Shown piece after piece: positions 9,632 to 63,543 of a DNA stretch of 64,000 bases. Made by a program: the position numbers and the translations under genes. Under the pieces are notes generated by a model that saw only the letters and a program-made list of their open reading frames with translations, was not told where the DNA came from and did no database searches. Position 1 is the stretch's first letter. Each line of letters starts with the position of its first letter. The DNA is taken from NCBI GenBank assembly GCA_039796775.1, contig JBDKJD010000001.1, positions 88,399 to 152,398 of the forward strand. Direction: 5' to 3'. The stretch comes from Candidatus Parcubacteria bacterium (lineage in GTDB: Bacteria > Patescibacteriota > Minisyncoccia > Phycocordibacterales > UBA5272).

Positions 9632-11077
9632 ATGTCTATAATTACTCTCTATACTACTAACTCAAGGAAAGAAGAGACCTTTACTCCTTTGAATAAAGAT
9701 TCTGTACATATCTACTCTTGTGGACCAACTGTGTATCATTATGCGCATATCGGTAATTTGCGTGCTTATGTATTCGCAGATGTCTTGCGAAGAATGTTTT
9801 CTAAAAGTGGCTACACCGTGAAGCATGTGATCAACATCACAGATGTTGGACATATGACAAGTGATGGGGATACAGGTGAAGACAAATTAGAAAAAGGCTC
9901 TCGAAGAGAAGGTAAGAGTGCTTTTGAGGTAGCTTTGTTCTATGAAGAAGCTTTTAAAAAAGATCTCGGACTTCTTAACATACCACTCAAAGAATATCTA
10001 TTCCCAAGAGCGACTGAATATATACAAGAACAAATCAATCTTATTGAGAAGTTAGAGTCAAAAGGCCACACGTACAGAATAGATGATGATGGTATTTATT
10101 TTGACACTTCAACATTCAAAGAATACAAAGATTTAGCACAATTAGATATAGAACATCTACGGTCTGGTGCTCGTGTAGAAGAGAACCCCCTCAAGAAAAA
10201 TAAAACCGACTTCGCATTATGGAAATTTTCTCCCAAAGGCTTTAGACGTCAAATGGAATGGGAATCCCCTTGGGGTGTTGGCTTTCCTGGTTGGCATATA
10301 GAATGTTCAGCGATGTCAAAAGCTCTTCTTGGGACCACATTTGATATTCATACAGGTGGTATAGACCATATTCCCGTGCATCATACTAACGAAATAGCTC
10401 AGAGCGTATGTGCGAATGATGCTCCTTATGTGAAGTATTGGATGCATGTTAATTTTCTCCATGACAAGACAGGTAAGATGTCAAAATCAAATGATGACTT
10501 CTTAACCCTTGATTCAATTATTCAAAAAGGATATGACCCGATGGTGTATCGTTATTTTGTATTAACCGCACATTACAGAAAAGAACTTTCTTTTAGCTAT
10601 GAAGCATTACAGGCAAGCAAGATGGCATACAACAAACTGTCTTCTTTTGTCATCAATAACAAAAAAAATGGATCGATTATCCCCTCTTCTTTGAATGCAT
10701 TCCTAGAAGCTCTACAGCATGATTTAAGAACCCCTGAAGCAATAGCTCAAATGTGGTCTCTCATGCAAAGCGACTACAAAAAAGAAGATATTAGCGCGAC
10801 ACTTAAGGAGATGGGGGACATGCTCGGTATTATATTTAAAGATAATGCTATAGATGAAAAAGCGCTCGAATCTTTTATTGCTAAATTAGTACAAGATTAC
10901 AAAAAAGCAAAAATAGCAAAAGATTATGCAACCTCAGACACAATACGAGAGCGTCTCAAAAAAGAAGGATACACTGTTCAAGATGAGAAAGACGGCGGTG
11001 TTAAATTTTTTGCAAATATGGAAGTGAACATGTCAGGGTCTTCCTCTTTAAAAACAGATATTGATACTGAACAATAA
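9632..11077 (+). CDS. cysS: cysteinyl-tRNA synthetase
   Basis: Class I HIGH-type (HIGN) and KMSKS motifs; CGPTVY; zinc-binding Cys and His residues. Confidence 0.95.
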   Translation: MSIITLYTTNSRKEETFTPLNKDSVHIYSCGPTVYHYAHIGNLRAYVFADVLRRMFSKSGYTVKHVINITDVGHMTSDGDTGEDKLEKGSRREGKSAFEVALFYEEAFKKDLGLLNIPLKEYLFPRATEYIQEQINLIEKLESKGHTYRIDDDGIYFDTSTFKEYKDLAQLDIEHLRSGARVEENPLKKNKTDFALWKFSPKGFRRQMEWESPWGVGFPGWHIECSAMSKALLGTTFDIHTGGIDHIPVHHTNEIAQSVCANDAPYVKYWMHVNFLHDKTGKMSKSNDDFLTLDSIIQKGYDPMVYRYFVLTAHYRKELSFSYEALQASKMAYNKLSSFVINNKKNGSIIPSSLNAFLEALQHDLRTPEAIAQMWSLMQSDYKKEDISATLKEMGDMLGIIFKDNAIDEKALESFIAKLVQDYKKAKIAKDYATSDTIRERLKKEGYTVQDEKDGGVKFFANMEVNMSGSSSLKTDIDTEQ

Positions 11078-11083
11078 TCGAAC

Positions 11084-11117
11084 ACTAGATGCGTCGCCGT
11101 AGGCGACGCATCTAGTG
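11084..11117 (+). terminator. hairpin after cysS
   Basis: Perfect 15-bp inverted repeat cactagatgcgtcgcc/ggcgacgcatctagtg. Weak U-tract. Confidence 0.5.
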
Positions 11118-11232
11118 CCAAGAGCTAAAAGCTCATAGCTGTCCGCTTATCCCCACTTTCCCCAGAAAAATAACAAAAGATAATTAATTATCATTTGCGT
11201 CAACTCCCCCTCATTGAGGTACACTCTATAGC

Positions 11233-12693
11233 ATGTTACCTCTTAATCAATTACAACCCTCAAGAAACAAAACGTCTCGCAAACGCTATCAAGACTATGA
11301 CAAAAAAATAGGCGAGACTGCTTTTGCTGGTACGCGTATCCCACCACAGGACTTAGATGCCGAGAAGGCGCTTCTTGGTTCTCTTCTCCTCTCCTCTGAT
11401 ACGCTTTTTGATATTTCAGATATTATTCACACTCAATCATTTTATGCAGCCAAGCATCAACTCATCTATGAATCAATTGAAGAGCTAGTTAATAATAAAG
11501 AACCTGTTGATATATTAACTGTCTCATCTTCTCTCAAGACCAAGAAACTCTTTGATCAAATTGGAGGTGCCCCATATCTCTCTGAATTACTCGGCTTAGT
11601 TGGATCAGCAGCAAATGCAAAGTATTATGCTCAAATCATTAGAAAAAAAGAGTTGCTCCGCAAGCTCATTGAAGGAAGTAACCACATTGCAGAAATATCA
11701 TACGAAGAAGAAGAGACGCTTGAAAGCATCTTAGAAGATGCCGAGAAAACAATTTATGAAATCACTACCAAAGGTGAGGCCTCAGGGCGGCTGATTGGAT
11801 TCAACGAAATGATTGACGAGACCTGGTCTCGCATTGAGAAACTCGCAGATCATACAGGCGGCATGCGTGGCACACCGAGCGGATTCAAAGAACTCGACAA
11901 TAAATTATCTGGATTCCAGCCATCTGACCTTATTATCTTAGCTGCTCGACCTTCTGTTGGTAAGACATCTCTCGCGCTAGACTTCGCACGCAACGCGGCT
12001 GTTAAGAGTAATATTCCTGTAGCAATCTTCTCACTTGAAATGAGTAAAGAACAGCTCGTAGACCGTATGCTTTCAGCGCAGTCCCAAGTCGACGGATGGA
12101 AACTCCGCACAGCCAAGCTTTCCCTAGATGAGGAATTCGAACGTCTTCAAGCTGGAATGCATGAGCTCATGAAGGCTCCTATTTATGTAGATGACACTGC
12201 GGCTAACTCTATTTTGAACATGAGAAGTACATTGCGACGACTCCAAACAGACAAGCCGATAGGTCTCGTGATAGTCGACTACTTGCAGCTTATGAGTACT
12301 GCTAAGAACTATGACAACATGGTTAATCAAGTAACCGAAATCTCTCGCTCATTAAAAGGTTTAGCGAAGGAATTCAATGTGCCTGTTATCGCACTGTCAC
12401 AGCTTTCTCGTGCGGTAGAGTCTCGTGGTGGACGCCCTCGTCTCTCTGACCTTCGTGACTCAGGATCAATCGAACAAGATGCGGACGTGGTGATGTTCAT
12501 CCATCGCGAAGACAAGTATGGTGAGAACACAGAAAAGAAAAATATTGTAGAGATACTCATAGAAAAGCATCGTAATGGACCAACAGGTGTTGTAGAACTT
12601 TACTTCGATGACAAGAAGACATCCTTCCTCTCTGTCGAAAAGTCAGAGTTCGGCGACTTCTCCATCCCTTCAGTTAAGATACCTGAGTTTTAA
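11233..12693 (+). CDS. dnaB: replicative DNA helicase DnaB
   Basis: N-terminal LDAEKALLGSLLL. Walker A ARPSVGKTSLALDFARN. RecA-like core. Confidence 0.95.
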   Translation: MLPLNQLQPSRNKTSRKRYQDYDKKIGETAFAGTRIPPQDLDAEKALLGSLLLSSDTLFDISDIIHTQSFYAAKHQLIYESIEELVNNKEPVDILTVSSSLKTKKLFDQIGGAPYLSELLGLVGSAANAKYYAQIIRKKELLRKLIEGSNHIAEISYEEEETLESILEDAEKTIYEITTKGEASGRLIGFNEMIDETWSRIEKLADHTGGMRGTPSGFKELDNKLSGFQPSDLIILAARPSVGKTSLALDFARNAAVKSNIPVAIFSLEMSKEQLVDRMLSAQSQVDGWKLRTAKLSLDEEFERLQAGMHELMKAPIYVDDTAANSILNMRSTLRRLQTDKPIGLVIVDYLQLMSTAKNYDNMVNQVTEISRSLKGLAKEFNVPVIALSQLSRAVESRGGRPRLSDLRDSGSIEQDADVVMFIHREDKYGENTEKKNIVEILIEKHRNGPTGVVELYFDDKKTSFLSVEKSEFGDFSIPSVKIPEF

Positions 12694-18911: not shown

Positions 18912-19451
18912 TTAACACACATTTGGTGTGTTGATTTTTTTGAGAAGTGTATGAATAGAAAATAAGAGAATGATAATACCAACATATCCAAACTCTTCAC
19001 CATTGTACGGAAGCACATTAGTCAAAAACGTGCCCCCAGCTATTCCAAACAATGTCGTTATGATAACTGTGCCACATGCAGCACACCCAACCCCCATGAG
19101 CGCCAAGAGAAGTCCTGTGCCCGAATAGAGTCCACTCTTCATAATCATCTCGCTGTGATTCTTGATATACACATAGAAAAGGCTGAGTACTACCCCAGTT
19201 AACAATGATGTAATGATTGATACAGCTAGTGATGAAGTGGTGAAGCTGTTATTGATATCAAACAGTGTAGACACCCCCATCCCCATCCTTTTCCAAAAAT
19301 TAATCTGATCAAATGACAATACCTGTAACGCAGAGTTTCCATTTTGAAGAAGAAGCACGAAGAGAAACACCACTCCCGCACTCATGAATGCTATACAGGT
19401 GTTCTTCATGCTAGAAAAAACGCGAATTGCTGTAGATAGAGATTGATTCAT
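18912..19451 (-). CDS. hypothetical integral membrane protein
   Basis: Four to five hydrophobic helices. Confidence 0.45.
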   Translation of the reverse strand: MNQSLSTAIRVFSSMKNTCIAFMSAGVVFLFVLLLQNGNSALQVLSFDQINFWKRMGMGVSTLFDINNSFTTSSLAVSIITSLLTGVVLSLFYVYIKNHSEMIMKSGLYSGTGLLLALMGVGCAACGTVIITTLFGIAGGTFLTNVLPYNGEEFGYVGIIILLFSIHTLLKKINTPNVC

Positions 19452-19487
19452 AATGCTAAGTGTATCATGAGTGTGGTGTCTATGTGG

Positions 19488-52233: not shown

Positions 52234-53958
52234 TTATTTGATGGCTTCTTCTAACTTTTTCTCTATTTCTTGTTCTATTACCTCTAATCGCTTCTTAAAC
52301 TTTTTCATAATAGCTTGCTCTTCTTTGGTTAACTCTCTTTTCTTTTCTGCTTTGACCAAAACATCATGGAACTCTTCTACATCTCTACGAAGCGCAGAAA
52401 CATTCATTTCTAAGGTATTCTCTACCTCACGAAGCTTACGCTTAACGTTCCTTCTAAAAAGATTAAATTGAACAAATGCATACCAAAGCGTAGCAATGAC
52501 TGCGAGTAGTGCTATAACAATGATAAGTATCACAGAAAGCCAATTCATCACAAAAATTCCAAATCGAAGAAGTAACATTCTCTCCACTTCTATTACTTTG
52601 ATATTAGTGAAATCACTCACCGCGCCTTTGCTATCAAACACTCTTACCTTCATCTCATACACCCCAGAAGGAATCTTGTCTTTCCACGTGAGACTAAATA
52701 CTCCGACTTCATCTGTAGTTACATCTCTTATTAAGGCTTCGCCGTTTTTGTTGGTGAGTGTTACTTCTACTCTAGAATTAGGATATGAGGCTCCGACTAC
52801 TTTTAATTGAGAATCAAATTCTACTTTTCTGGAATATTCAGTAATGAGAGGTGGATTAATAGCTTGAATAGTGTAATCAAGTGACGCTGTTGAACTGTTC
52901 CCCGCTTGATCAGTAACTGTAATGATAACAGTATGCTTGCCTGGACTTTGTCTTGGGAGTCTATAAATACCTGAATCTTCTTTGGTCATCTCTATGGCTT
53001 GACCTCCATCAATAGAAAGAGAAATAGTCTTGATGCCAGAGAGTGTGTCACTTGAATTAATCACTAAACTTGGAGTGATATTAGTAGTCACTGATCCATC
53101 TGGGAACGTTGCCTGATCAATGGTTGGCGCTTGTGTATCTATTTGAAATTTATACGTAGATACAGCTCCCCATCCGTCAGCATTTTTGAACTGTACCTTC
53201 ATATAAAAGATTCCATCTTCATCCACTGTGAATGATCTACTAGCTACAGGCGGAGTGTAGACCCTTGAAGGGTTGTCTGTTTCTTTGTCTGAATATACCG
53301 TTCTCACAGAAGTAACATTTGAAGAGATTTTCCATTCAAAACTTGCATCTCTTCTTGAATACCAGGCGGTGCTATCTGGATGAGTTGGAGAGGTTATAAC
53401 AGGAAGAGAAAGTTCTACTGGTTCCTTCTCAACAACATTACCCTCTTCTCCTATATAAACAAGCGCAGAACCTGTTGTTTTTAGTACATCTGTCGCATTC
53501 CCGTCATTTAACAATACAGCGCCTTCTTTAATAACAATACTAACATTCCCTGCTTCTTTAGCTTTGAATGTGACTGTTATAACTTTGCCGGTAGCCTTGC
53601 TGTACCCTGGATTAAGAGCAACACCTTCTAGCGAGATTGTGCCTTTTTCATTAGAAAAAGTGGGCTCCTCTGCCCAAAGACTCATAAAAGACCCTGTCTT
53701 AGAAATAGAGATAACTTCAAGAGCATCCTTTGGAAATGTCGCATCAAGCGATACGGCATTAATAGCTTCTGTATTATTGGTAACATTAAAATCTACTTTG
53801 AATGTTCTCCCAACTGACGTAGAAACAGACGAAGGAGATACTATTAAGTTAGCAGCACTTACATATAACTGACTAGAGATACAAACAAATAGAGCGACCG
53901 CTATAAGAAGACTATTTTTTATTGAGGGGGTGGCGATATGCATGTATGATAATAACAA
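52234..53958 (-). CDS. surface protein with N-terminal cohesin-like domain, Ig-like repeats, C-terminal TM and coiled-coil tail
   Basis: Cohesin-like beta-sandwich pattern (TFKVDFNVTNN..AINAVSLDATFPKDALEVISI...KGTISLEGVAL...KVITVTFKAKEAGNVSIVI). TM helix VMNWLSVILIIVIALLAVIATLW. Confidence 0.55.
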   Translation of the reverse strand: MLLSYMHIATPSIKNSLLIAVALFVCISSQLYVSAANLIVSPSSVSTSVGRTFKVDFNVTNNTEAINAVSLDATFPKDALEVISISKTGSFMSLWAEEPTFSNEKGTISLEGVALNPGYSKATGKVITVTFKAKEAGNVSIVIKEGAVLLNDGNATDVLKTTGSALVYIGEEGNVVEKEPVELSLPVITSPTHPDSTAWYSRRDASFEWKISSNVTSVRTVYSDKETDNPSRVYTPPVASRSFTVDEDGIFYMKVQFKNADGWGAVSTYKFQIDTQAPTIDQATFPDGSVTTNITPSLVINSSDTLSGIKTISLSIDGGQAIEMTKEDSGIYRLPRQSPGKHTVIITVTDQAGNSSTASLDYTIQAINPPLITEYSRKVEFDSQLKVVGASYPNSRVEVTLTNKNGEALIRDVTTDEVGVFSLTWKDKIPSGVYEMKVRVFDSKGAVSDFTNIKVIEVERMLLLRFGIFVMNWLSVILIIVIALLAVIATLWYAFVQFNLFRRNVKRKLREVENTLEMNVSALRRDVEEFHDVLVKAEKKRELTKEEQAIMKKFKKRLEVIEQEIEKKLEEAIK

Positions 53959-54874
53959 CAGAAGCTAACACAAGTAACACACTCACTATGATACTATTAA
54001 GTATACTGAATAGACGCTGTTTTGTATTTAAGTTTTCAACAGTAGATATAGTTTTGATAGTATAATCACCACTCATATATTCAATATAGAGATGTATATA
54101 GTCTCCTCTTTCTTTGCTGATGACATACGGTAATGATATTTCTTGCCACAAAGAAGAAGTAACATTTGGTTCCGTGCTTTCATTTGACTGAATTAATTTA
54201 ACGAAACGAATAGGACTATAGAGTTTAGTATCCGTGAGGGTGATATACGTTTTTTGACTCTCCAGAGAACTGTCATCCATCAAAAGCAGCTCGATAGAAT
54301 TAATGTCTTTTCTATTGAGCGATAAGGCTGGTACTGTATTTTGATTAGCTACATTTGTGATAGTGAACATATGCTCTTTGGTTCTAGACGTGAGCACTGT
54401 AGCCTTCTCATCAAATGCATGAACTTGAACATTATCAAACAATATAACACCTTTGCCATTACTTTTAGGAGTAAGGAGTATAGTGAATAACTTTCCTTTA
54501 GTGAACGGATTTCCTGACCCAACATATGTATGTGACCACCCACCGATAAAAATACCTTCGAAAGATATAGTACTTCGTTTATTCAACGTATCTTTTTGTA
54601 GAGTGGGCTGAGTGACCCACAAAGGAACAATAGAGTCATAAAGTGATATTGTATAAAGAGACAACATTTCTTCTGGGAAAGAAATACTCCCTGAGACCCC
54701 ACTTACCACACTCCCCTCACTGTCCATATACACAGTAACTGGTACCACCTGAACTCCGTTTATTATTGTCGGTGCATTCACTTCAAAAGACACAGCGTAT
54801 ACACCATGCCATGTGCTTATTACTATACCTATACTAAAGAGTAATTTTTTGTACATAGTTATCCGGTCCAACAA
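53912..54874 (-). CDS. surface protein with cohesin-like domain and C-terminal TM anchor
   Basis: VQVVPVTVYMDSEGSVVSGVSGSISFPEEMLSLYTI...GKLFTILLTPKSNGKGVILF matches the cohesin pattern. C-terminal TM. Confidence 0.55.
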   Translation of the reverse strand: MLDRITMYKKLLFSIGIVISTWHGVYAVSFEVNAPTIINGVQVVPVTVYMDSEGSVVSGVSGSISFPEEMLSLYTISLYDSIVPLWVTQPTLQKDTLNKRSTISFEGIFIGGWSHTYVGSGNPFTKGKLFTILLTPKSNGKGVILFDNVQVHAFDEKATVLTSRTKEHMFTITNVANQNTVPALSLNRKDINSIELLLMDDSSLESQKTYITLTDTKLYSPIRFVKLIQSNESTEPNVTSSLWQEISLPYVISKERGDYIHLYIEYMSGDYTIKTISTVENLNTKQRLFSILNSIIVSVLLVLASVVIIIHAYRHPLNKK

Positions 54875-55824
54875 TAAGCCAAGATACTTAAATCAGTCAA
54901 ATTAATAGCTCCATCATTACTTAGATCAACTTCTTTGGGAAAAGAATTTCTCTTATACCAAAATGCCATAATACTAAAATCAAAAATGTTAACCCTGTTA
55001 TCGTTATTCAAATCGCAGTGCTTTCTAAAACCAAATAAGAGAGAATTATTGGTTCTTGTTACATTTTTGTCCCCTATAATAAACCCAATTGGAGAAGAGA
55101 ATCCGGACGTCGCTTGTGTGATGATTGACTTAGCCTTAACAACATACTCTCCATATACGAGAATACTACTTGGTAATGAATATTTCCACATACCCTTATT
55201 GTCTGCTTTGGTTTTGATAATATATTCTTCGTCATCGCTATCTTTTTTGAAGAACATAACACGTATATCAGCATGCGGTGTCGCTTCTCCAAAAAAAAGA
55301 ATACTTTCTCCCATCTTCACCTCTATCTTGTCAGATGTAATAGTAGGAGGAATCAAAATACCTTCAACTAATGTCATCACCCCCTCTTGTATAAAGATAC
55401 TAAACGATAAGAGAACTGAGAATCTTCCCGACGTGTCTACCGCTTGAACACCAAAACTATATACACCCTGACTGAGTGTTGGTGATGATATTTCAAATGA
55501 GCCATCACCATTTGCTCTCACTTCGTTAACTACGAGACCGTTACGAAGAAGTCTTACTTTTGACTCACCGTATGCCACACCCCTAAAAAGAGCAACATTA
55601 ACGAACGAGCTCGTATTGATCGGACCTGGGTTAATCGGTGGAGTATCAGGATATACAAGTGGTGGGGTTGGTACTACGGCAGTAATAGTTACACCTTCAT
55701 AAAGAGGATTCTGCGCTTGACCAAAAACGGTAACAAAAGGGAACGTGTTAGAGAAAAGTACTGTTACAAGTGTAATCAGCCCGACTATTTTCCGGATGCT
55801 TTTTGAGCTTGTTTGATGATCCAT
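54859..55824 (-). CDS. secreted protein with C-terminal type-I dockerin domain
   Basis: Two about 22-residue Ca-binding dockerin repeats, DLNNDNRVNIFDFSIM and DLSNDGAINLTDLSIL, at the extreme C-terminus. N-terminal signal anchor and Ig-like middle. Confidence 0.7.
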   Translation of the reverse strand: MDHQTSSKSIRKIVGLITLVTVLFSNTFPFVTVFGQAQNPLYEGVTITAVVPTPPLVYPDTPPINPGPINTSSFVNVALFRGVAYGESKVRLLRNGLVVNEVRANGDGSFEISSPTLSQGVYSFGVQAVDTSGRFSVLLSFSIFIQEGVMTLVEGILIPPTITSDKIEVKMGESILFFGEATPHADIRVMFFKKDSDDEEYIIKTKADNKGMWKYSLPSSILVYGEYVVKAKSIITQATSGFSSPIGFIIGDKNVTRTNNSLLFGFRKHCDLNNDNRVNIFDFSIMAFWYKRNSFPKEVDLSNDGAINLTDLSILAYCWTG

Positions 55825-56753
55825 TGATTATATTTCTTAAGCGCTAGAGTGAGTGCAAGTATCACAACAAGCAAAGAAACAAGGACAACAACAAGAAGCT
55901 GCCAAGGGAACATGAAGTAGGTAATAGATGATTCTGACTTACCTTCATTACCAAAGGAAAGTGAAAGTGTCGCTGTATACATACCAAGAGCAAAGTTATT
56001 CATTTGATAGGTAACATGTTCAAAGAATGGTGCAGAGGCAGCTGGTGCTTCATATGATCCTAGACGAGCTTCGAACTTTCGTGTGCTTCCTGGTAATACA
56101 TTTCCCTCTGTTTTGTTGGCGTTGATTTTTGTAACTTCGAATCCAAGCGTATTAGTAATAACAATATCACCTAATGGCTTTACTCTGTCATTACCACTAT
56201 TAGTAAAACGGTATTCAAAATCAACTGGAAGTGAGCTAAGTGTCTTTGTGTCACCTTTTATGGTGAATGACGATACACCCCCCTCTTCTTTTACATCACC
56301 TGTAACCTTGAGTAAAATAAGCATCCCGACTTTAGCACCTACAGATACCTGACTGCTGTCAGCAGACGGAGGAACAGTTGAGAGGAATATCGCCGCGAAA
56401 TGTCCCCCTGACTGAGCATCTGCTGGGACACTGATTGTATACGGGAGCGAAACTCTTTCACCTGGTTTAATAGTCACCTTATCAGTAACAGTTACCCATG
56501 TAGGAAGACCTTCTGTTGCTTTTGTGAAATTAGGAGTACCTGATTCACCTTGAGAGTCAAAAGCTTCTACTGAAGTATAAAATGTTTGTTCAGTATCTTG
56601 ATCATTAATAATAAGGAAGGTTTTTGAAATAGCCTCTCCTTTGTCAGCGGTTAATTCTTCACGCGCAGGCGAAATAGTAAGAGCGTTCAGAACGAGTGCA
56701 GGTGCCAGAAACAGTGAGATAATGGCGAAGAATTTTTTGGTAAATGATTTCAT
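55785..56753 (-). CDS. DUF916/DUF3324-like cell-surface protein with C-terminal TM anchor (CscA-like)
   Basis: Signal peptide, two beta-rich domains, C-terminal FPWQLLVVVLVSLLVVILALTLALKK anchor. Matches the CscA-type anchor architecture of WxL/Csc loci. Confidence 0.5.
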   Translation of the reverse strand: MKSFTKKFFAIISLFLAPALVLNALTISPAREELTADKGEAISKTFLIINDQDTEQTFYTSVEAFDSQGESGTPNFTKATEGLPTWVTVTDKVTIKPGERVSLPYTISVPADAQSGGHFAAIFLSTVPPSADSSQVSVGAKVGMLILLKVTGDVKEEGGVSSFTIKGDTKTLSSLPVDFEYRFTNSGNDRVKPLGDIVITNTLGFEVTKINANKTEGNVLPGSTRKFEARLGSYEAPAASAPFFEHVTYQMNNFALGMYTATLSLSFGNEGKSESSITYFMFPWQLLVVVLVSLLVVILALTLALKKYNQWIIKQAQKASGK

Positions 56754-56785: not shown

Positions 56786-57877
56786 TTAGAAGTTGGCAGT
56801 TGCTACATAAGTTAGGTTAGCAGCATATATACCGGCTTCTGTTATTCCAGCAACGTTAGCCAAATAACGCAGTGACAATGTAGAAGTGTTGGTTACACCA
56901 GACCCTGTAGCAAACAAAGACGGTGTCGATGAAGAAGCATCGAATCCGTATGATGTTGAGAATCTGTACGTATCGTCGACAGTTACCCCTGTTCCACCTG
57001 ATTCAGTCGCTCGTATCGCGAACTGCTCAGTACCAGGAGTTGAAGAAGCTGCAACAGCACCTATTGCTGTGATTGTATTAAGAGAGTTTTGTTGTGATGT
57101 GAGCGTGTCACCTCTTACTGTTATAGCGAAACCAAAAGGTGCATTAGTGGAGATGGCGAGTGTGTGTGCAATAGTTTCTGCTGAATCTCCTGCTGTGTTT
57201 GTAGAGGAAGCGAACTTGGCACCACCTGAAGAGAGGTTACCAAAATAAATTGTTGTAGTAGAAATAGTGAATGTAAGAGATTGTTGAACAGTACCAGTCA
57301 TAGATACAGTATCGTCTGGAACAATATATGTACTTATTGAACCAGTATCTCCGAATGTTCCTGCAATAGTGATTTCGTATGTTCCTGGAGTTCCTGGATT
57401 AGTGATTTGAGAAACACCTGTTGCTCCAAATGTCGCATTAGATCCGATTTGGATTTGAATACAACGATTCGCTGGAATCACAGCAGTACCTGATGTGAGA
57501 GTGATAGTCTGAGAAGACTGTGAAGTTCCCCATGTTAGAGCTGATGCCGCGCCGGCTTGTAATTGAGCATCACTGAAACCAGAACACGTAGCTGAGGTTG
57601 ATGTAGCTAAGTCAAGGTTGTTGACGTTAAATGTCCCCATTGTATACCCAGCTGGAAACGTAATAGTTATTGTCTGCCCTGCTGTTAATCCGGTTGGAGT
57701 AACGAACTGGATAGTGTGATCTGATAATGTACTTTGTTGTACTGATGACTGTGTATTAGAAAGACTAGTCAAAGAAGCAGCGAGTACTAACTCTACGTGA
57801 ACAAAAGAAGCTCCAATCGCAAGAAGAGCAATAGTAACTAATGTTGTTAATTTTTTAAATAATGTAGTAAGTAACAT
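56786..57877 (-). CDS. secreted surface protein, paralog 1 (shared C-terminal ...YVATANF domain)
   Basis: Signal peptide. About 65-70% identical to the neighbouring 367-aa gene. C-terminal 170 aa shared with the 1094-aa protein. Confidence 0.6.
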   Translation of the reverse strand: MLLTTLFKKLTTLVTIALLAIGASFVHVELVLAASLTSLSNTQSSVQQSTLSDHTIQFVTPTGLTAGQTITITFPAGYTMGTFNVNNLDLATSTSATCSGFSDAQLQAGAASALTWGTSQSSQTITLTSGTAVIPANRCIQIQIGSNATFGATGVSQITNPGTPGTYEITIAGTFGDTGSISTYIVPDDTVSMTGTVQQSLTFTISTTTIYFGNLSSGGAKFASSTNTAGDSAETIAHTLAISTNAPFGFAITVRGDTLTSQQNSLNTITAIGAVAASSTPGTEQFAIRATESGGTGVTVDDTYRFSTSYGFDASSSTPSLFATGSGVTNTSTLSLRYLANVAGITEAGIYAANLTYVATANF

Positions 57878-58096
57878 AATAATCTCTTAATTCAATAAAA
57901 TCGACACAACAATTAAAGATATGTCTTACCTCTAAGTGTATCACTCCTTTGAATGAAATAGACACATTTGAGTCAAAAAATGTGGAAAAACTTTACTTAA
58001 AAGCTTTAATTGACACTTAACAAAACAGGATAGAAAAACTATATACTTAAAAAATCGGTTAAAAATGGTAGATACTTCGAACAATTCTATTAATAC

Positions 58097-59200
58097 TTAA
58101 TAGTTAGCAGTAGCAACATAAATAAGGCTTGCCACATATGTTCCCGCTTCAGTTAAACCAGAAATATTGGCTACATAACGTAAGGAATAGGTTGTTGTGT
58201 TGGTTGCTCCAGATCCTGTAGCTAAGACCGAAGGGGTTGTGGATGAGGCATCGAATCCATATGATGTAGTGAATATATAGGTTGGATCAATCGTTGCCCC
58301 TGTACCACCAGAGACTGTTGCTCGTATACCGAACTGTTCAGAGCCGAGTGTGGAAGAAGCAGCAGTGACCCCCATAGCTGTAATCGTATTAGCAGCCAAC
58401 TGCTGAGAAGTGAGCGTATCCCCACGTATGGTTATCGTATATCCAGAGGGAGCATTTGTGGCTATCCCAAGCGTGTGTGCGATGGTTTCTGTTGAATCTC
58501 CTGCGGTGTTTGTGGAAGAGGCGAACTTGTCATCACCTGCGGACAAGTTACCAAAATAAATTGTTGTCGTAGAGATGGTGAATGTAAGAGACTGTTGAAC
58601 GGTAGCACTAATGAGGACTGTATCATCTGTAATGATATTTTGAGTAATTGTCCCATTATCAGCCCCCACTATAATGGTAATAGCGTATGATCCTGGGGTG
58701 GTTGGATTAGTGATCTGAGTGACTCCTGTTGCTCCAAATGTCGCATTAGATCCTATTTCTATTTGAACACAACGATTCGCTGGAATCACAGCAGTACCTG
58801 AGGTGATATATACAGTCCCTGTTGCTTGAGTTACACCCCATGTCAAAGCTGACGGTGCGCCGGACTGTAATTGAGCATCACCAAACCCTGAACAGGTAGC
58901 TGACGTTGATGTAGCTAAATCAAAGTTAGCAACAGCAAATGTCCCTGTTGCATAGTTTGAAGGGAAGGTAATACTAATAGCCTGGCCAGCGGATAATCCA
59001 GTTGGTGTCACAAATTGTATTGTGTGATTAGATAATGTGTTGACCTTAAGAGAGCTTTGAGTGTCTGACAGGCTCGAGAGAGCGGCTGCGTGAGCGAGTT
59101 CAACGTGAACAATAGAAGCTCCGAGTGCGATAGAGAAGATGGTGCAGAAAGCAAAGAATTTATGTAGCTTAGAAGTTGTTGTATTGAAGACACTTATCAT
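58097..59200 (-). CDS. secreted surface protein, paralog 2 (shared C-terminal ...YVATANY domain)
   Basis: Tandem duplicate of 56786-57877, with long identical DNA stretches. Confidence 0.6.
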   Translation of the reverse strand: MISVFNTTTSKLHKFFAFCTIFSIALGASIVHVELAHAAALSSLSDTQSSLKVNTLSNHTIQFVTPTGLSAGQAISITFPSNYATGTFAVANFDLATSTSATCSGFGDAQLQSGAPSALTWGVTQATGTVYITSGTAVIPANRCVQIEIGSNATFGATGVTQITNPTTPGSYAITIIVGADNGTITQNIITDDTVLISATVQQSLTFTISTTTIYFGNLSAGDDKFASSTNTAGDSTETIAHTLGIATNAPSGYTITIRGDTLTSQQLAANTITAMGVTAASSTLGSEQFGIRATVSGGTGATIDPTYIFTTSYGFDASSTTPSVLATGSGATNTTTYSLRYVANISGLTEAGTYVASLIYVATANY

Positions 59201-59264
59201 GAATAGTAACAGTATACTCTAAGCGTATCATTAAATAACAATACTTTTAAGTGGAAAGAGGTTA

Positions 59265-62200
59265 TTAGAAGTTAGCGGTTGCAATATACACAAGAGCAGC
59301 GGAGTACTCATTCGCCTCTGTTGTTGGAGTAATATTCACAAGATAACGGACAGAGAATGTGGTAGTAGCATTATCCCCAACCCCTGTCGCTACGGTGCTT
59401 GGAGTTGAAGATGACGCATCGAAAGCGAATCCAGAAAGCGCGTAAGGAGATGACACGACACCACTTCCTCCACTCGCTGTTAATCGCACTCCGAACTGTT
59501 CAGTACCTGGGGTGGATACTGTGTTAACACCTCCTATTTGAGTAATAGTTGTAGATCCTGCAGTTAATGTATCCCCTTGTAGGGTTACTGTGTACCCGTT
59601 GATGGCATTTGTATTAACAATGAGAGAGTGGGCTTCTACTTCAACATCACTCCCTAAAAGAGATGTAGACGAAGCATATCTCGCTTGAGCGGACAACGCT
59701 GTCCCAAAATAAACAGAAGAAGTGGACACAGAGAAAGAAAATACTTGCGGACTAGAAGATGAGTTACTCGCCTCTTGCCATTCTAAGAGCATGCGATACC
59801 TCACGTTAGCATCACCTTGAGTCTGTTCATTATAAAGCGCCAACCCTTCCCCTTCTTTAAGGATAAGCTCGTCACCGTAATATATATCTGAATCAAAAAC
59901 TCCCGACGGTTGGTTAACTAACCCTGGTGTGGCTATTCCTAATACTCTAGAAGAGGTGGATTGCAAAAACCCAATTGTCGGACCTGTTGTACGTATATCG
60001 GCGGTCGAAGTCGAAGATCCTGAATGCTTGCGCGGGACACTCGTAGTTGCAACAACTGTTCCACCAGTAGCACTTCCTATTTTTCGTATACTGACTGGTT
60101 GATACACAGGAGCAACTACAGTACCACTACGATTAGCTCTGATACCTAGTTTTTTGACTATATAATTTTTACCTGAACCTATTGGATTAAAAAAAGAAGT
60201 ATAAGCATACCCAAGTGTCGTTGACTGATTGATTGGACCACTCGTGTACAAATATTCACTCAGCGTGGAAGGAGCGGAGCTCTCTTCATCCCATTCGAAT
60301 AATATTTTTACTCTAAAGTCAGCATCCCCGGCTGCTGTATCATGATACAATCCAACACCTTCTCCGGGTCGTAAGATTATAGGCTCTTTGTTATCAAATG
60401 TAATTTCTTTATATGCAGTTTGTGCGGCTGCAGCAGACGATACAGCACCTTGAGTTTGTACAGCTAATAATTTTGAGTCGGTGGTGCCTGAATATGTAGC
60501 AGTGACTCCCGTACGTCGTAGTTCGACAACACTGTTAACTGTACCTGTATGCTTTTTGGGAATACTGGTAGAAGCTATTTGAGTTCCGGCAGATGCTGCA
60601 CTTATGCGCCTTAATTGCATCGGGATATACACTGCCGTGTTCACACTATCGATTCTCATTTGCATTCTTTTTATGATTGCAGTCTTGCCTGACCCAGAGG
60701 GATTAAAAAAGGTTGCATAATTATATGAAGTTGCTGTACTACCGTTAATATCGCCTATATCTATAAGATATTCTCCTTGTGAAGACGGAGCTGAGCCTTC
60801 TTCATCCCATTCAACAAAAGTCCTCACATAATTATCCACATCACCAAGAGCAGCATTATAAAGAGCTACCCCCTCTCCTGGCTGAAGGATAATTTTTTCA
60901 TTATTACCTAACACCATCTCCCTTTGACCTATTGTCTGTCCAACAGCCCCAGGGGAAGTGACAGTCATGAAGTTAGCATCCGTAGTCCCGCTATAGGTAG
61001 CAGTGATCGCTGATGCACATGCGGCCCCACACCATCTCACTTCCATAACACTATCAGCTGTCCCTGTATGTTTTTTTGGGAGGGCCCCTGCTGCGATAAG
61101 CGTTCCACCTGAAGCTGTCGTAATTCTCCTGTAACTATACGAGACATATACTCCTGTTGAGTCAGCATCTACTTGAATTCCTAACTTTTTTATCACTATA
61201 TTTTTGCCTGATCCTACAGGATTAAAAAAAGAATAATGGGTGGTGTTAGCAGCAGCGGCAGCTTCTATACGATTCGATGCCCAAATATATTCTCCTTGCG
61301 AAGCTGGGGTATTCACCGCATCGACTTCTTCCCATTCTATAATCATGCGCACAAGTTGATCTAAATCCCCTGCTGTTTCTGAAATGAGAGCAACTCCTTG
61401 TCCAGCTTGAAGAATTAGCTTCTCGTCATTTTGATGAAAATTAATTTCTTTCCACCCGGTTGCCTGTGCTGTTGTACCACAAGGTGTAACACTTCCGATA
61501 CGAGCATCCACCCCTCCTGCTGTTGTTGTTGAGACAGTTACCCCAGTGCGCCGGAATTCCATAAAAGAATCAGCTCCACCTGTATGCTTTTTGGGGATAC
61601 TTGAGGTTGCGATAAGTGTTCCTCCAGTGGCAGATGATATTCTCTGAAGAATAATATTATTAGTATAGACAGCTGCAGCGTCGCATGTCTCCGTACCAAA
61701 CCAAATACGTTTAACTATCGCGGTCTTACCAGATGCAGAAGGGTTAAAAAAACTATTATAGGTATACCCAGGTGTTGTAGTGATTTCTACTCTTGGGAAT
61801 GCGAACAAGAATTCATTTTGGGGCGTGGGGGCATTCACCGTCTCTTCCCATTCATATAACACTCTAATTGATGTACCGACAGTCCCAGCTGCTTCTTGAT
61901 ATACAGCAATACCTTCTCCTGGTTGAAGAATAATCTTTTCATCTTGATCTCCAAAAGTAATATTTCGAGAACTATAATAAGCGCCCACAGCTCCAGAAAG
62001 AGGCTGTCCAAGAATACGAGAATCAGCAGTTCCAGAAAAAGTAACCGTTGGCCCAGAATGACGTATCTCAGCTATGGAGTTGCTTGAGCTCGCATTTTTT
62101 TGTGGAAAGTCTGCAGCTAAAATTTGAGTGCCCAGTGAGGAGGCCGAGATTCTACGTGCAGAGAGGTTGACATAGTTAGACGCGGTAGATGTAGAGACAG

Positions 62201-62549
62201 TATCAGAGCGTATAGCGAGCCTTTTTATTGCTACCGTCTTCCCTGATCCTGCTGGGTTAAAAAAAGCTGAATATACATAATTAGCTGATACAGATCCATT
62301 CACCGGACCAACATCAAGCATATATTCTTTCTCGTTTGGGTTAATCGCGGCTGAAGCTTTTGAAGGGGAAGAGAAGATGGTATCCACTACATTCTTATTG
62401 AGAGAAGCCAAATATATTTTGTCTACAATTTTCCCGTGTTTGTTTTTTTGGCTTACGGTTTGGAATAAACTAACAATAGCTTCTGGATTAAATCCAGACA
62501 AAAAAAGTTGCACAATCAAAAGCGATGTAAGGATTCTTCTAATCAGCAT
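59265..62549 (-). CDS. giant secreted surface protein: 5 tandem about 165-aa repeats plus shared C-terminal ...YIATANF domain
   Basis: Signal peptide. Repeats each contain FFNPxxSGK(T/N)..IK(R/K), PKKH(T/S)G, ILQPGEG.ALY and EWEE blocks. C-terminus is homologous to the two upstream paralogs. Confidence 0.65.
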   Translation of the reverse strand: MLIRRILTSLLIVQLFLSGFNPEAIVSLFQTVSQKNKHGKIVDKIYLASLNKNVVDTIFSSPSKASAAINPNEKEYMLDVGPVNGSVSANYVYSAFFNPAGSGKTVAIKRLAIRSDTVSTSTASNYVNLSARRISASSLGTQILAADFPQKNASSSNSIAEIRHSGPTVTFSGTADSRILGQPLSGAVGAYYSSRNITFGDQDEKIILQPGEGIAVYQEAAGTVGTSIRVLYEWEETVNAPTPQNEFLFAFPRVEITTTPGYTYNSFFNPSASGKTAIVKRIWFGTETCDAAAVYTNNIILQRISSATGGTLIATSSIPKKHTGGADSFMEFRRTGVTVSTTTAGGVDARIGSVTPCGTTAQATGWKEINFHQNDEKLILQAGQGVALISETAGDLDQLVRMIIEWEEVDAVNTPASQGEYIWASNRIEAAAAANTTHYSFFNPVGSGKNIVIKKLGIQVDADSTGVYVSYSYRRITTASGGTLIAAGALPKKHTGTADSVMEVRWCGAACASAITATYSGTTDANFMTVTSPGAVGQTIGQREMVLGNNEKIILQPGEGVALYNAALGDVDNYVRTFVEWDEEGSAPSSQGEYLIDIGDINGSTATSYNYATFFNPSGSGKTAIIKRMQMRIDSVNTAVYIPMQLRRISAASAGTQIASTSIPKKHTGTVNSVVELRRTGVTATYSGTTDSKLLAVQTQGAVSSAAAAQTAYKEITFDNKEPIILRPGEGVGLYHDTAAGDADFRVKILFEWDEESSAPSTLSEYLYTSGPINQSTTLGYAYTSFFNPIGSGKNYIVKKLGIRANRSGTVVAPVYQPVSIRKIGSATGGTVVATTSVPRKHSGSSTSTADIRTTGPTIGFLQSTSSRVLGIATPGLVNQPSGVFDSDIYYGDELILKEGEGLALYNEQTQGDANVRYRMLLEWQEASNSSSSPQVFSFSVSTSSVYFGTALSAQARYASSTSLLGSDVEVEAHSLIVNTNAINGYTVTLQGDTLTAGSTTITQIGGVNTVSTPGTEQFGVRLTASGGSGVVSSPYALSGFAFDASSSTPSTVATGVGDNATTTFSVRYLVNITPTTEANEYSAALVYIATANF

Positions 62550-63543
62550 ATGATACGTATGAATATACTTGTTCGCTTATTTCTTTGAACAATGCTTGTA
62601 TCTCTGTTTTATCGAGCTCACCTTTTTTGTTTTGAGCTATCATTACCGTGAGGAGATATGGTCTCCCTTTAGCATAGACAATCCCTGAGTCAGCCATCAC
62701 CTTCTCATCTATTCTAACACCCGTCTTGTGTACAAAAGGTACATCTTTTGGAATACCAAGAGACAAGAATTCATCTGGCTCTCTCTTTAAGATAGAGAGG
62801 AACGATTCTGAATGATACTGATCTAAGAATGTCGCATTATAGAGAGATCTAAAAAATATAGAGTATCGCTTCGCGGTGATACGATTATCAACATTATCAA
62901 AATCTTTTTTGTTGCGCTTTAACCCTTCTATAACATCATCCATACCAAGGTGGACAAACACATCTTCCAATTCCCCTCCTTCAATATTACGCAATAATAC
63001 GAAATGTGCTGTATTGTCAGAATTAATAAGAGATTCTTCAATAAATCGCTTAATTGAATGTGTCGTCCCTGTATCTTCTTTATACATGAATCCGAATTCT
63101 GTATCTTTGTCCTGGTCGAGGATAACAAGCTCATTATCTAACTTCCATTTTTTGTCTTGAACCTTTTTCATTGCAGCCATCGCCACTGGAATTTTTATAA
63201 GACTAGCTGGCCAAATTTTAACGTCTTTATGTGTCGAAATATTCGCCCCAGTTGGGAAGTATTCAAAATAAATCGAAATCGTATAGTCGGTTCTCTTTTC
63301 ATAGTCTTGCAACTTTTCTTTCAACTCTTGGAAGTCGACGATTAAGTTACGCTTATCCAAAATAGCAAGTGAAGGATTAAGAAGAGATTGAGAATCACTC
63401 ACAGCACTTCGTTCAGAAAAAATAAAATAAACGACAACTGATAACAATATCAAAGAAATAGTAATCGACACAGTCGCTATCAACCGATACGGCACAGCTC
63501 TTGTGCGATTATGCTCTTTGTTAAAATTATAATAAGGTTTCAT
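62539..63543 (-). CDS. class-A beta-lactamase / penicillin-binding-like serine hydrolase, membrane-anchored
   Basis: SxxK (PASLIKIP), SDN (LINSDNT) and KTG (VHKTGV) in the correct order and spacing. N-terminal TM. Stop overlaps the start of the giant surface gene by 11 nt. Confidence 0.7.
   Translation of the reverse strand: MKPYYNFNKEHNRTRAVPYRLIATVSITISLILLSVVVYFIFSERSAVSDSQSLLNPSLAILDKRNLIVDFQELKEKLQDYEKRTDYTISIYFEYFPTGANISTHKDVKIWPASLIKIPVAMAAMKKVQDKKWKLDNELVILDQDKDTEFGFMYKEDTGTTHSIKRFIEESLINSDNTAHFVLLRNIEGGELEDVFVHLGMDDVIEGLKRNKKDFDNVDNRITAKRYSIFFRSLYNATFLDQYHSESFLSILKREPDEFLSLGIPKDVPFVHKTGVRIDEKVMADSGIVYAKGRPYLLTVMIAQNKKGELDKTEIQALFKEISEQVYSYVSYAD

Follow-up and report, generated by a model that had tools for sequence, protein, structure and literature searches.

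The window analysed here is a stretch of 64,000 nucleotides (nt) from a Candidatus Parcubacteria bacterium (contig JBDKJD010000001.1; positions below are counted from the first letter of the stretch), and it carries two adjacent genes, A and B, for predicted pilus subunits. Both are complete open reading frames (ORFs) on the minus strand: gene B (58097–59200, 367 aa) is the first pilin of its operon, and gene A (56786–57877, 363 aa), which has the same architecture, is the second. The two lie head-to-tail with an AT-rich spacer of 219 nt between them, and their products are annotated as 'hypothetical protein RI935_152/153, Candidatus Parcubacteria bacterium'; the exact protein was found on one contig only. 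Pairwise alignment returned 70.2 % identity at the protein level (254/362) and 70.5 % at the DNA level (766/1086). We consider it probable that A and B are two differentiated shaft subunits of the Pam type that arose by an old duplication and were later subject to short-tract gene conversion, which homogenised their shared structural and assembly segments.

The family assignment was made with NCBIfam release 20, in which model NF058581 (CPR_Pam_pilin_C, 'Pam pilus system pilin subunit'; cutoff 55 bits) gave scores of 62.8 bits for A and 69.2 bits for B. An initial annotation of this DNA, made from the sequence without database searches, had described the pair as surface-protein genes, which was right in substance, the genes being predicted pilus subunits. 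No Pfam family was matched by A, B or 43 homologues. A profile search collected 945 representative clusters at E ≤ 1e-10, including full-length pilins, short proteins consisting of the C-terminal domain only and long proteins bearing the domain at their C-terminus; the close homologues number 685. Protein B begins with a signal peptide, after which come a beta-sandwich N-domain, a linker strand and, at the C-terminus, a domain of the Pam type. Its AlphaFold2 model (predicted local distance difference test score, pLDDT, 87) places a helix at residues 11–38, about 11 strands at 42–190, an isolated strand at 205–209 and nine strands at 242–365, a predicted layout that matches the Pam pilin architecture described for Ca. 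Mycosynbacter amalyticus (bioRxiv 10.64898/2026.03.03.709456). Sec signal peptides, as read from the sequence, are predicted for both proteins, with a basic n-region and a hydrophobic stretch followed by VLA↓AS in A and by AHA↓AA in B. Cys103 and Cys144 are invariant in the 43 homologues, and the candidate donor/linker strand QSLTFTISTTTIYFG hardly varies across 35 copies. Neither the pilins nor the 322-aa chaperone-like protein encoded next to them had a match when the PDB was searched by sequence and by profile. A Foldseek search of the PDB with the pilin model returned generic adhesins with two immunoglobulin-like (Ig-like) domains only (ClfA, SdrG and FnBPA; template modelling (TM) score about 0.2), because the copy of the PDB that was searched contained no Pam structure; these hits are uninformative on the family.

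The initial annotation had drawn attention to identical nucleotide runs shared by the two genes, and alignment recovered exact runs of 33 nt (57461–57493 in A, 58769–58801 in B) and 29 nt (57417–57445 in A, 58725–58753 in B; this run contains the 26-nt string first noticed), as well as a third of 21 nt (57236–57256 in A, 58547–58567 in B). The coordinates originally given for the B copies were 7 nt too low, the 33-nt run having been placed at 58762–58794. A tract of about 100 nt reported as about 85 % identical (57197–57297 versus 58508–58608) has 85 of 101 nt in common, or 84 %. The mosaic of conserved and diverged segments is likewise borne out by the alignment, in which DNA identity per 60-nt interval is not uniform and ranges from 0.47 to 0.90. 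The description of the N-domains as variable stands only in part: the most divergent tract (B residues 169–198) does lie in the N-domain, but the most conserved tract (B residues 129–168) lies there too.

We then compared the runs with two shuffle nulls. When codon columns were shuffled, the probability of a longest run of at least 33 nt was 0.002 and that of a second run of at least 29 nt was 1e-4. Under a stricter null, in which the protein alignment was fixed and codon pairs were shuffled only among positions with the same amino-acid pair, the corresponding values were 0.005 and 5e-5. The exact runs are thus present, as first noticed, and go beyond chance under both nulls; since they are improbable even with the protein alignment fixed, they exceed what chance and protein conservation together would yield.

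Gene conversion, one of the two processes that had been proposed for this pair, is supported: synonymous homogenisation that is lineage-specific and limited to tracts, together with tree conflict, indicates that DNA has been transferred between A and B. Tract 1 (57389–57508 in A, 58697–58816 in B, both on the minus strand as are all tracts below) is identical at 102 of 120 nt, contains the 33-nt and 29-nt runs and corresponds to B residues 129–168, the core of the N-domain including Cys144. Tract 2 (57155–57295 in A, 58466–58606 in B) is identical at 118 of 141 nt and corresponds to B residues 199–245, comprising the probable donor/linker strand and the start of the C-terminal domain. A possible third tract, for which the evidence is weaker, lies at 57557–57616 in A and 58865–58924 in B (B residues 93–112; 51 of 60 nt identical).

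The tracts named in the initial annotation served as a hypothesis fixed before the analysis. Within them, identical amino acids of A and B are encoded by the same codon at 21 of 23 positions (B residues 134–158) and at 19 of 29 positions, respectively, against 78 of 185 (42 %) elsewhere in the genes (Fisher p = 7e-6). The same-codon fraction of these tracts in ortholog comparisons, which provide the baseline, is 0.34–0.53, and that of tract 1 in the paralogue pairs of other genomes is 0.30–0.57. Because the same tracts score low both in orthologues and in other genomes' pairs, the homogenisation is lineage-specific and does not reflect a universal nucleotide constraint. The proportion of synonymous differences (pS) between A and B is 0.27 in B residues 129–168 and 0.43 in residues 199–245; it is around 0.7–0.8, i.e. 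saturated, between orthologues, and also between paralogues over most of the gene. At the DNA level, identity in tract 1 reaches 0.87–0.93 within this genome versus 0.58–0.65 for the paralogues of L001, one of the related loci from other assemblies (labelled here with L numbers).

Site patterns in quartets point the same way. Each quartet consisted of A and B from the window and A′ and B′ from a relative, and sites were scored as supporting orthology (O), as having the paralogues alike within each genome (C) or as following the third pattern, which serves as a control for homoplasy (X). The comparison with L001 returned O78/C54/X21 (C versus X, p = 2e-4), and for other relatives the C versus X comparison gave p = 0.003 (L013) and p = 0.011 (L2). 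C sites are clustered (permutation p = 0.005) in residues 93–112, 129–168 and 199–245, and in the last of these intervals the comparison with L001 gave O2/C16/X1. Control quartets among L013, L001 and L002 showed no excess of C over X (13/28, 19/20 and 20/22). Two-nucleotide synonymous switches common to both window paralogues were found at Ser98 and Leu56; Ser98 is encoded by TCN in both A and B of the window and by AGY in both paralogues of L013 and both of L001. An analysis of A/B-diagnostic sites was set aside: relative to L013, L001 and L002 the window lineage is the outgroup, and a B state found in A can for that reason be ancestral; the quartet test of C versus X is free of this flaw.

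The tree conflict was seen by neighbour joining (NJ). Within the initially annotated tracts (177 sites), A and B of the window group together with 99 % bootstrap support, whereas outside the tracts this grouping receives 0 % and A joins its orthologues in an A-type clade with 95 %. When partitions were analysed separately, support for A+B was 88 % in tract 1, 85 % in tract 2 and 61 % in B residues 93–128, which contain the possible third tract.

Similar events are visible in the relatives. When 91 pairs were ranked by a Sawyer-type longest-fragment test, p was ≤ 0.021 for 6 of the 7 pairs that come from a single genome. The clearest single recent conversion event of the set is that of L008, whose paralogues (10001–11098 and 11215–12303) are otherwise about 70 % identical and share a perfect 125-nt tract corresponding to B residues 98–140. 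The L001 pair has been independently homogenised in residues 199–245 (pS 0.37, bootstrap 81 %), and copies 1 and 2 of L007 share an identical run of 77 nt. Copies 1 and 3 of L006 (7475–8557 and 9984–11069) are identical for 785 nt from the start and only 62–77 % identical thereafter, which is explained either by a large conversion or duplication of very recent date or by an error in assembling the metagenome-assembled genome (MAG). The number of pilin copies among the relatives ranges from 1 to 3. The relatives' own labels vary (Saccharibacteria, Parcubacteria, Paceibacterota, Pacebacteria and, in one case, Polynucleobacter), and such MAG taxonomic labels are unreliable.

The duplication itself is old. 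The first pilin of L013, L001, L002 and L003 is 79–83 % identical to B and the second is 73–81 % identical to A, with A and B at 70 % to each other; the positional orthologues in L014 are 75 % identical to B and 66 % to A. When whole genes were used for the NJ tree, the A types formed one group (93 % bootstrap support). On account of these A-type and B-type orthologues in related genomes and the grouping of the A types, the duplication predates the split of these lineages.

What distinguishes the two types is best seen in an unconverted segment of A, PGTYEITIAGTFGDTGSISTYIVPDDTVSMT (57296–57388, minus strand), and its counterpart in B, PGSYAITIIVGADNGTITQNIITDDTVLIS (58607–58696, minus strand; B residues 169–198). 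Two types of motif precede the linker strand, '...TQNIITDDTVxxSATV' in the first copy and '...DDTVxMTGTV' in the last copy, and both types ('...SATV' and '...MTGTV') were found in nearly all loci, including those with three copies. In B residues 169–198, the proportion of nonsynonymous differences (pN) is 0.36–0.46 between paralogues, and between orthologues it is 0.03–0.10 in most pairs and 0.18 in one; for the window itself, A and B differ at 0.36 in this segment against 0.07 between orthologues. Quartet sites in the segment follow orthology (O18/C0/X2 against L013 and O18/C3/X2 against L001). All measurable ratios of nonsynonymous to synonymous substitution rates (dN/dS) are below 0.5, and those from ortholog comparisons are at most 0.17, with many cells undefined on account of saturated synonymous sites. 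Residues 169–198, like most of the remainder of the gene, are type-specific and under purifying selection.

Several points weigh against this interpretation. All sequences come from metagenome assemblies, and very long identical runs, e.g. that of L006, could be assembly artefacts. The GC content at third codon positions (GC3) is 0.25–0.33 in the window genes versus 0.34–0.37 in L001, such that parallel drift towards AT could yield some of the C sites; 31–32 of the 45–54 C sites are not in the AT direction, however, and the C sites are also clustered. Tract boundaries other than those of the initial annotation were picked after the data had been seen. As regards function, the curated family model covers the C-terminal domain only, expression and polymerisation of the pilins are predictions from the genes, and the putative donor-strand role of residues 200–215 is drawn from analogy and predicted secondary structure. 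Finally, other components of the published Pam system were scored far below their thresholds or were missing: the PamT model (NF058579) returned 27.6 and 32.9 bits against a cutoff of 240, the PamR model (NF058578) returned 13.5 bits against 300, and the NCBIfam models for PamC/D were unmatched among the operon proteins.

The alternative that survives best, and the second process that had been proposed for the pair, is antigenic or host-range variation, whereby recombination between the paralogues shuffles variable surface segments into new pilin variants in the manner of Neisseria pilE/pilS. Several of its ingredients are in place: gene conversion between A and B is real, the relatives differ in pilin copy number (1 to 3), chimeric copies exist elsewhere (copy 3 of L006 equals copy 1 for 785 nt and then diverges) and bacteria that live as episymbionts within the candidate phyla radiation (CPR) are plausibly under selection on host-contact surfaces. 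However, A and B are both complete, each having its own start codon, signal peptide and promoter-like motif, so that neither is a silent cassette, and searches with a hidden Markov model (HMM) and blastn found no truncated or silent further pilin copies in the 64 kb. The converted tracts, moreover, are the conserved segments, and conversion consequently homogenises the pair instead of diversifying it. The divergent segment, residues 169–198, keeps its orthology (again O18/C0/X2 against L013, with a pN of 0.07 between orthologues), and the low dN/dS values (all measurable ones below 0.5, orthologues at most 0.17) speak of constraint. A scan for inverted repeats detected short imperfect pairs only and nothing like an invertible switch. 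This pattern is that of two stably differentiated subunits and not of a variable antigen; the antigenic-variation proposal of the initial annotation is therefore not upheld, and we regard it as unlikely.

Still less probable is a plain old duplication with uneven purifying selection, in which the shared runs would follow from constrained amino acids and codon bias with no transfer of DNA. The runs do fall on family-invariant residues (P140, R143, C144, Q146, G150 and N152; F207–G217), and the overall synonymous identity of 0.50 is only modestly above the 0.39 expected from codon usage. Against this, fixing the protein alignment still leaves the runs improbable (P = 0.005 and 5e-5), neither orthologues nor the paralogue pairs of other genomes conserve these tracts at the nucleotide level, the trees conflict over A+B (99 % versus 0 %) and two-nucleotide synonymous switches are common to both paralogues. 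Plain duplication is largely refuted here and we regard it as very improbable. We regard as very improbable, and as the least credible of the three, lineage-specific selection on nucleotides or mRNA or a parallel compositional shift without recombination (an RNA structure, a translational pause site or a regulatory element shared within the coding region), for although the window genes have the lower GC3 (0.25–0.33, against 0.34–0.37 in L001) and 14–22 concerted sites pair AT in the window with GC in the relative, most concerted sites do not run towards AT, they occur in blocks and are not spread along the gene, and different genomes show different tracts, some of them perfect over 77–785 nt, which drift or selection cannot produce.

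Turning to the surroundings of the two pilin genes, all 14 related loci that extend past the pilin–chaperone core have the same gene order: a beta-lactamase-family protein, a protein of about 1090 aa, two or three pilins, a 322-aa protein, a dockerin-bearing protein, a protein of about 320 aa, a Big_13 protein and an FAD oxidase. Upstream of B in the window lies the gene for a 1094-aa protein (59265–62549, minus strand) in which five repeats, each of about 172 aa, precede a C-terminal domain of the Pam type. The latter was recognised by NF058581 (69.6 bits, cutoff 55; residues 973–1094), and the pilin HMM aligned to positions 939–1103 of the stop-to-stop frame, equivalent to about 930–1094 of the ORF. 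The repeats are 34–49 % identical, share the motif FFNPxGSGK...EW[ED]E and have no Pfam family; self-BLAST missed them, and they were recovered by motif search and alignment. A gene of about this size stands directly upstream of the pilins in 14 of the 14 loci that reach that far. As repeats followed by a Pam C-terminal domain are the layout expected of a tip adhesin, the 1094-aa protein is a candidate tip or adhesin subunit and may take the tip role. It is not a conversion donor, since blastn of the 3′ end of its gene against A and B found no high-identity tract.

Downstream of A, the gene for the 322-aa membrane-anchored protein (55785–56753, minus strand) encodes two predicted Ig-like domains in a chaperone-like arrangement, analogous to PamC/D and with a WxLIP-like predicted fold. 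Its AlphaFold2 model (pLDDT 82) ends in a helix at residues 284–319, a predicted membrane helix. The best Foldseek matches in the PDB were to the WxLIP of Enterococcus faecium (9i1y and 9i25; E = 5e-11, TM score 0.41–0.50), with further matches to RbmA and to the chaperone-usher chaperones CsuC, CfaA and DraB (E from 5e-11 to 4e-7 overall). PF06030 (the Pfam family WxLIP_PGBD) weakly matched 24 of 41 homologues, with a best E value of 0.0033, and did not match the window protein at E ≤ 1; no NCBIfam model matched the 322-aa protein. The gene is directly downstream of the pilins in every locus that reaches there, including the distant L010–L012.

Three more conserved operon genes follow at 52234–55824 (minus strand). 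One product (321 aa) combines a type I dockerin with a Big_13 domain and matches PamR weakly (E = 0.024). Another (320 aa) has no family assignment but carries a signal anchor and, at its C-terminus, a membrane helix. In the remaining one (574 aa), Big_13/Big_6 domains are accompanied by a C-terminal membrane helix and by a coiled tail that is charged. Overlaps of 15–47 nt between several of these ORFs suggest translational coupling. At the other end of the operon, a beta-lactamase-family gene (62539–63543, minus strand; PF13354, E = 9e-35) shares 11 nt with the start of the 1094-aa gene; it keeps its position in 13 of the 13 loci that reach it and is an unexpected partner for a pilus operon. 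Scans of the 64-kb window for tRNAs and Rfam families found two tRNAs only. As the PamT and PamR models score far below cutoff, the locus is a Pam-type system with a different accessory set and not a copy of the published operon.

Promoter-like motifs precede both pilin genes in the common form TTTCCAC-N-TGATACRCTTAGAG: TTTCCAC-N-TGATACACTTAGAG lies in the spacer between B and A, upstream of A (57933–57988, minus strand), and TTTCCAC-N21-TGATACGCTTAGAG lies upstream of B (59220–59257, minus strand). A −10-like element, TGnTACACTTA, is kept in the same spacer of L013, L001, L002, L003 and L014, with one mismatch in the last. These motifs are putative promoters, read as such from the sequence and its conservation; a scan of the pilin spacers for terminators and sigma-70 promoters returned nothing above shuffled expectation. 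The string TGATACRCTTA occurs three times in the 64 kb against 0.3 expected. Two copies are those upstream of the pilin genes, each with TTTCCAC further upstream, and the third (19457–19467, minus strand) ends 5 nt before an unannotated 179-aa ORF (18912–19451) that adjoins a staphylococcal-nuclease-like gene. TGATACRCTTA may be a promoter or regulator site common to highly expressed surface genes.

Taken together, a mechanism can be outlined for this locus. A and B are predicted Sec-exported pilins of two Ig-like domains, each of which, by analogy with PamA and PamB, would donate its linker strand into the open C-terminal domain of its neighbour, with the operon supplying the likely partners: the large repeat protein as probable tip or adhesin and the membrane-anchored chaperone-like protein. 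After the duplication, non-reciprocal homologous recombination has transferred tens to about 150 nt at a time from one tandem gene to the other. In this genome, the segments transferred are the core of the N-domain (residues 129–168 and perhaps 93–112) and the linker strand together with the first part of the C-terminal domain (199–245). Under this scheme QSLTFTISTTTIYFG is the likely donated strand, the two subunits would co-assemble by donor-strand exchange in one filament, and conversion would be tolerated, or favoured, at places where the two types have to fit common partners. Type identity or the order of assembly would in turn be set by the segment ahead of the linker.

A broader proposal, which we put forward tentatively and as a whole, is that selection confines short-tract conversion to the assembly interface (the donor/linker strand, the acceptor region and the N-domain core) and so keeps two to three pilin types able to co-polymerise, with copy-number changes and rare large chimeras such as that of L006 creating new type-specific surface combinations. 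If this were true, the locus would be a slow generator of diversity for host contact in CPR episymbionts. CPR bacteria make up a large and mostly uncultured share of bacterial diversity, and their attachment to hosts is poorly known. The present locus adds a related Pam-type operon in another CPR group with different accessory genes, in which two pilin types have been held apart over long evolutionary time and their shared core, including the probable donor strand, has been repeatedly homogenised by gene conversion. It also leads to a prediction, namely that A and B co-assemble and that the segment just before the linker strand sets type identity, and to a caution, as trees of the pilin family built from whole genes could mislead under conversion.

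The closest known system is the Pam pilus, characterised in 2026 by cryo-electron microscopy of filaments from one cultured species, Ca. Mycosynbacter amalyticus (Troman et al., bioRxiv 10.64898/2026.03.03.709456) and represented in NCBIfam by models NF058578–NF058581. Its pilins polymerise by donation of the linker strand to the neighbouring subunit, PamA and PamB occur in stretches within one filament, and the system includes the membrane-anchored PapD-like chaperones PamC and PamD, the tip pilin PamT and the anchor PamR (same source). The present locus resembles it in having a pilin C-terminal domain above cutoff, more than one pilin gene per operon and a chaperone-like protein with two Ig domains and a C-terminal membrane helix, and both systems are restricted to the CPR. 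It differs in lacking sequence-level equivalogs of PamT, PamR and PamC/D, in the upstream gene, which here encodes the 1094-aa five-repeat protein with a Pam C-terminal domain, and in the dockerin and Big_13 domains of the downstream genes. Moreover, A and B are close paralogues (70 %), whereas PamA and PamB have low identity and different sizes, and the source MAG is labelled Parcubacteria, whereas the published Pam pilins are mainly from Saccharimonadia and Microgenomatia (bioRxiv 10.64898/2026.03.03.709456). Paralogues, gene conversion and WxL are not discussed in that work.

The chaperone-usher pili of Gram-negative bacteria (Pap/Fim, Csu and CFA/I) are alike in their Ig-like subunits, the two-domain fold of the chaperone, the several related subunit genes per operon and a tip subunit with an extra N-terminal binding region. 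In contrast to these, there is no outer membrane here, the chaperone-like protein is membrane-anchored and there is no detectable sequence similarity; the strand donated in the Pam pilus is an inter-domain linker and not an N-terminal extension (bioRxiv 10.64898/2026.03.03.709456). Among the operon proteins scanned with Pfam and NCBIfam no usher family turned up, the scan being confined to those proteins and not extended to the whole window.

A further likeness is to the WxL clusters of Firmicutes, which consist of small WxL proteins, large WxL proteins and a WxLIP (DUF916–DUF3324–transmembrane helix) (Hassan et al. 2023, PMC10599100; PDB 9i1y and 9i25). In fold, the 322-aa neighbour matches WxLIP better than it does the chaperone-usher chaperones, and the clusters follow the same grammar: small proteins are made of a shared domain, one large protein carries this domain at its C-terminus behind N-terminal binding domains, and a membrane-anchored protein of two Ig domains acts as partner, for which insertion of a strand into the shared domain is predicted. 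Unlike the predicted pilins, WxL proteins are described as peptidoglycan-bound and not as filaments, and the likeness is at the level of fold only (TM score 0.41–0.50). The Pfam WxL domain was unmatched at E ≤ 1 by A, B, the 1094-aa protein and the 43 family members, a result that concerns the domain model, the dual Trp-x-Leu motif not having been searched for. Given the WxLIP match of the 322-aa protein and the mirrored composition of the clusters, it is a possibility that the Pam systems of the CPR and the WxL clusters of Firmicutes belong to a single ancient family of strand-complemented surface assemblies found in bacteria that lack an outer membrane.

With respect to the recombination itself, Neisseria pilE/pilS offers an obvious parallel in the non-reciprocal transfer of short DNA tracts between pilin paralogues. 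The present case is nonetheless unlike it, as there are no silent cassettes, the segments transferred are conserved and not hypervariable, there is no sign of high-frequency switching, and the class of pilin is unrelated (type IV in Neisseria, Ig-like donor-strand here). Concerted evolution is well known among tandem bacterial paralogues such as the tuf genes and among rRNA operons. As in those cases, defined tracts here are more similar between paralogues of one genome than between orthologues, and their synonymous sites have been homogenised; unlike them, the homogenisation is partial and mosaic, and it stands beside stable type-specific segments. The locus thus combines a recently described kind of pilus with a familiar evolutionary process, its main points being the variant Pam-type operon, the conversion around the probable assembly interface and the WxLIP-like chaperone.

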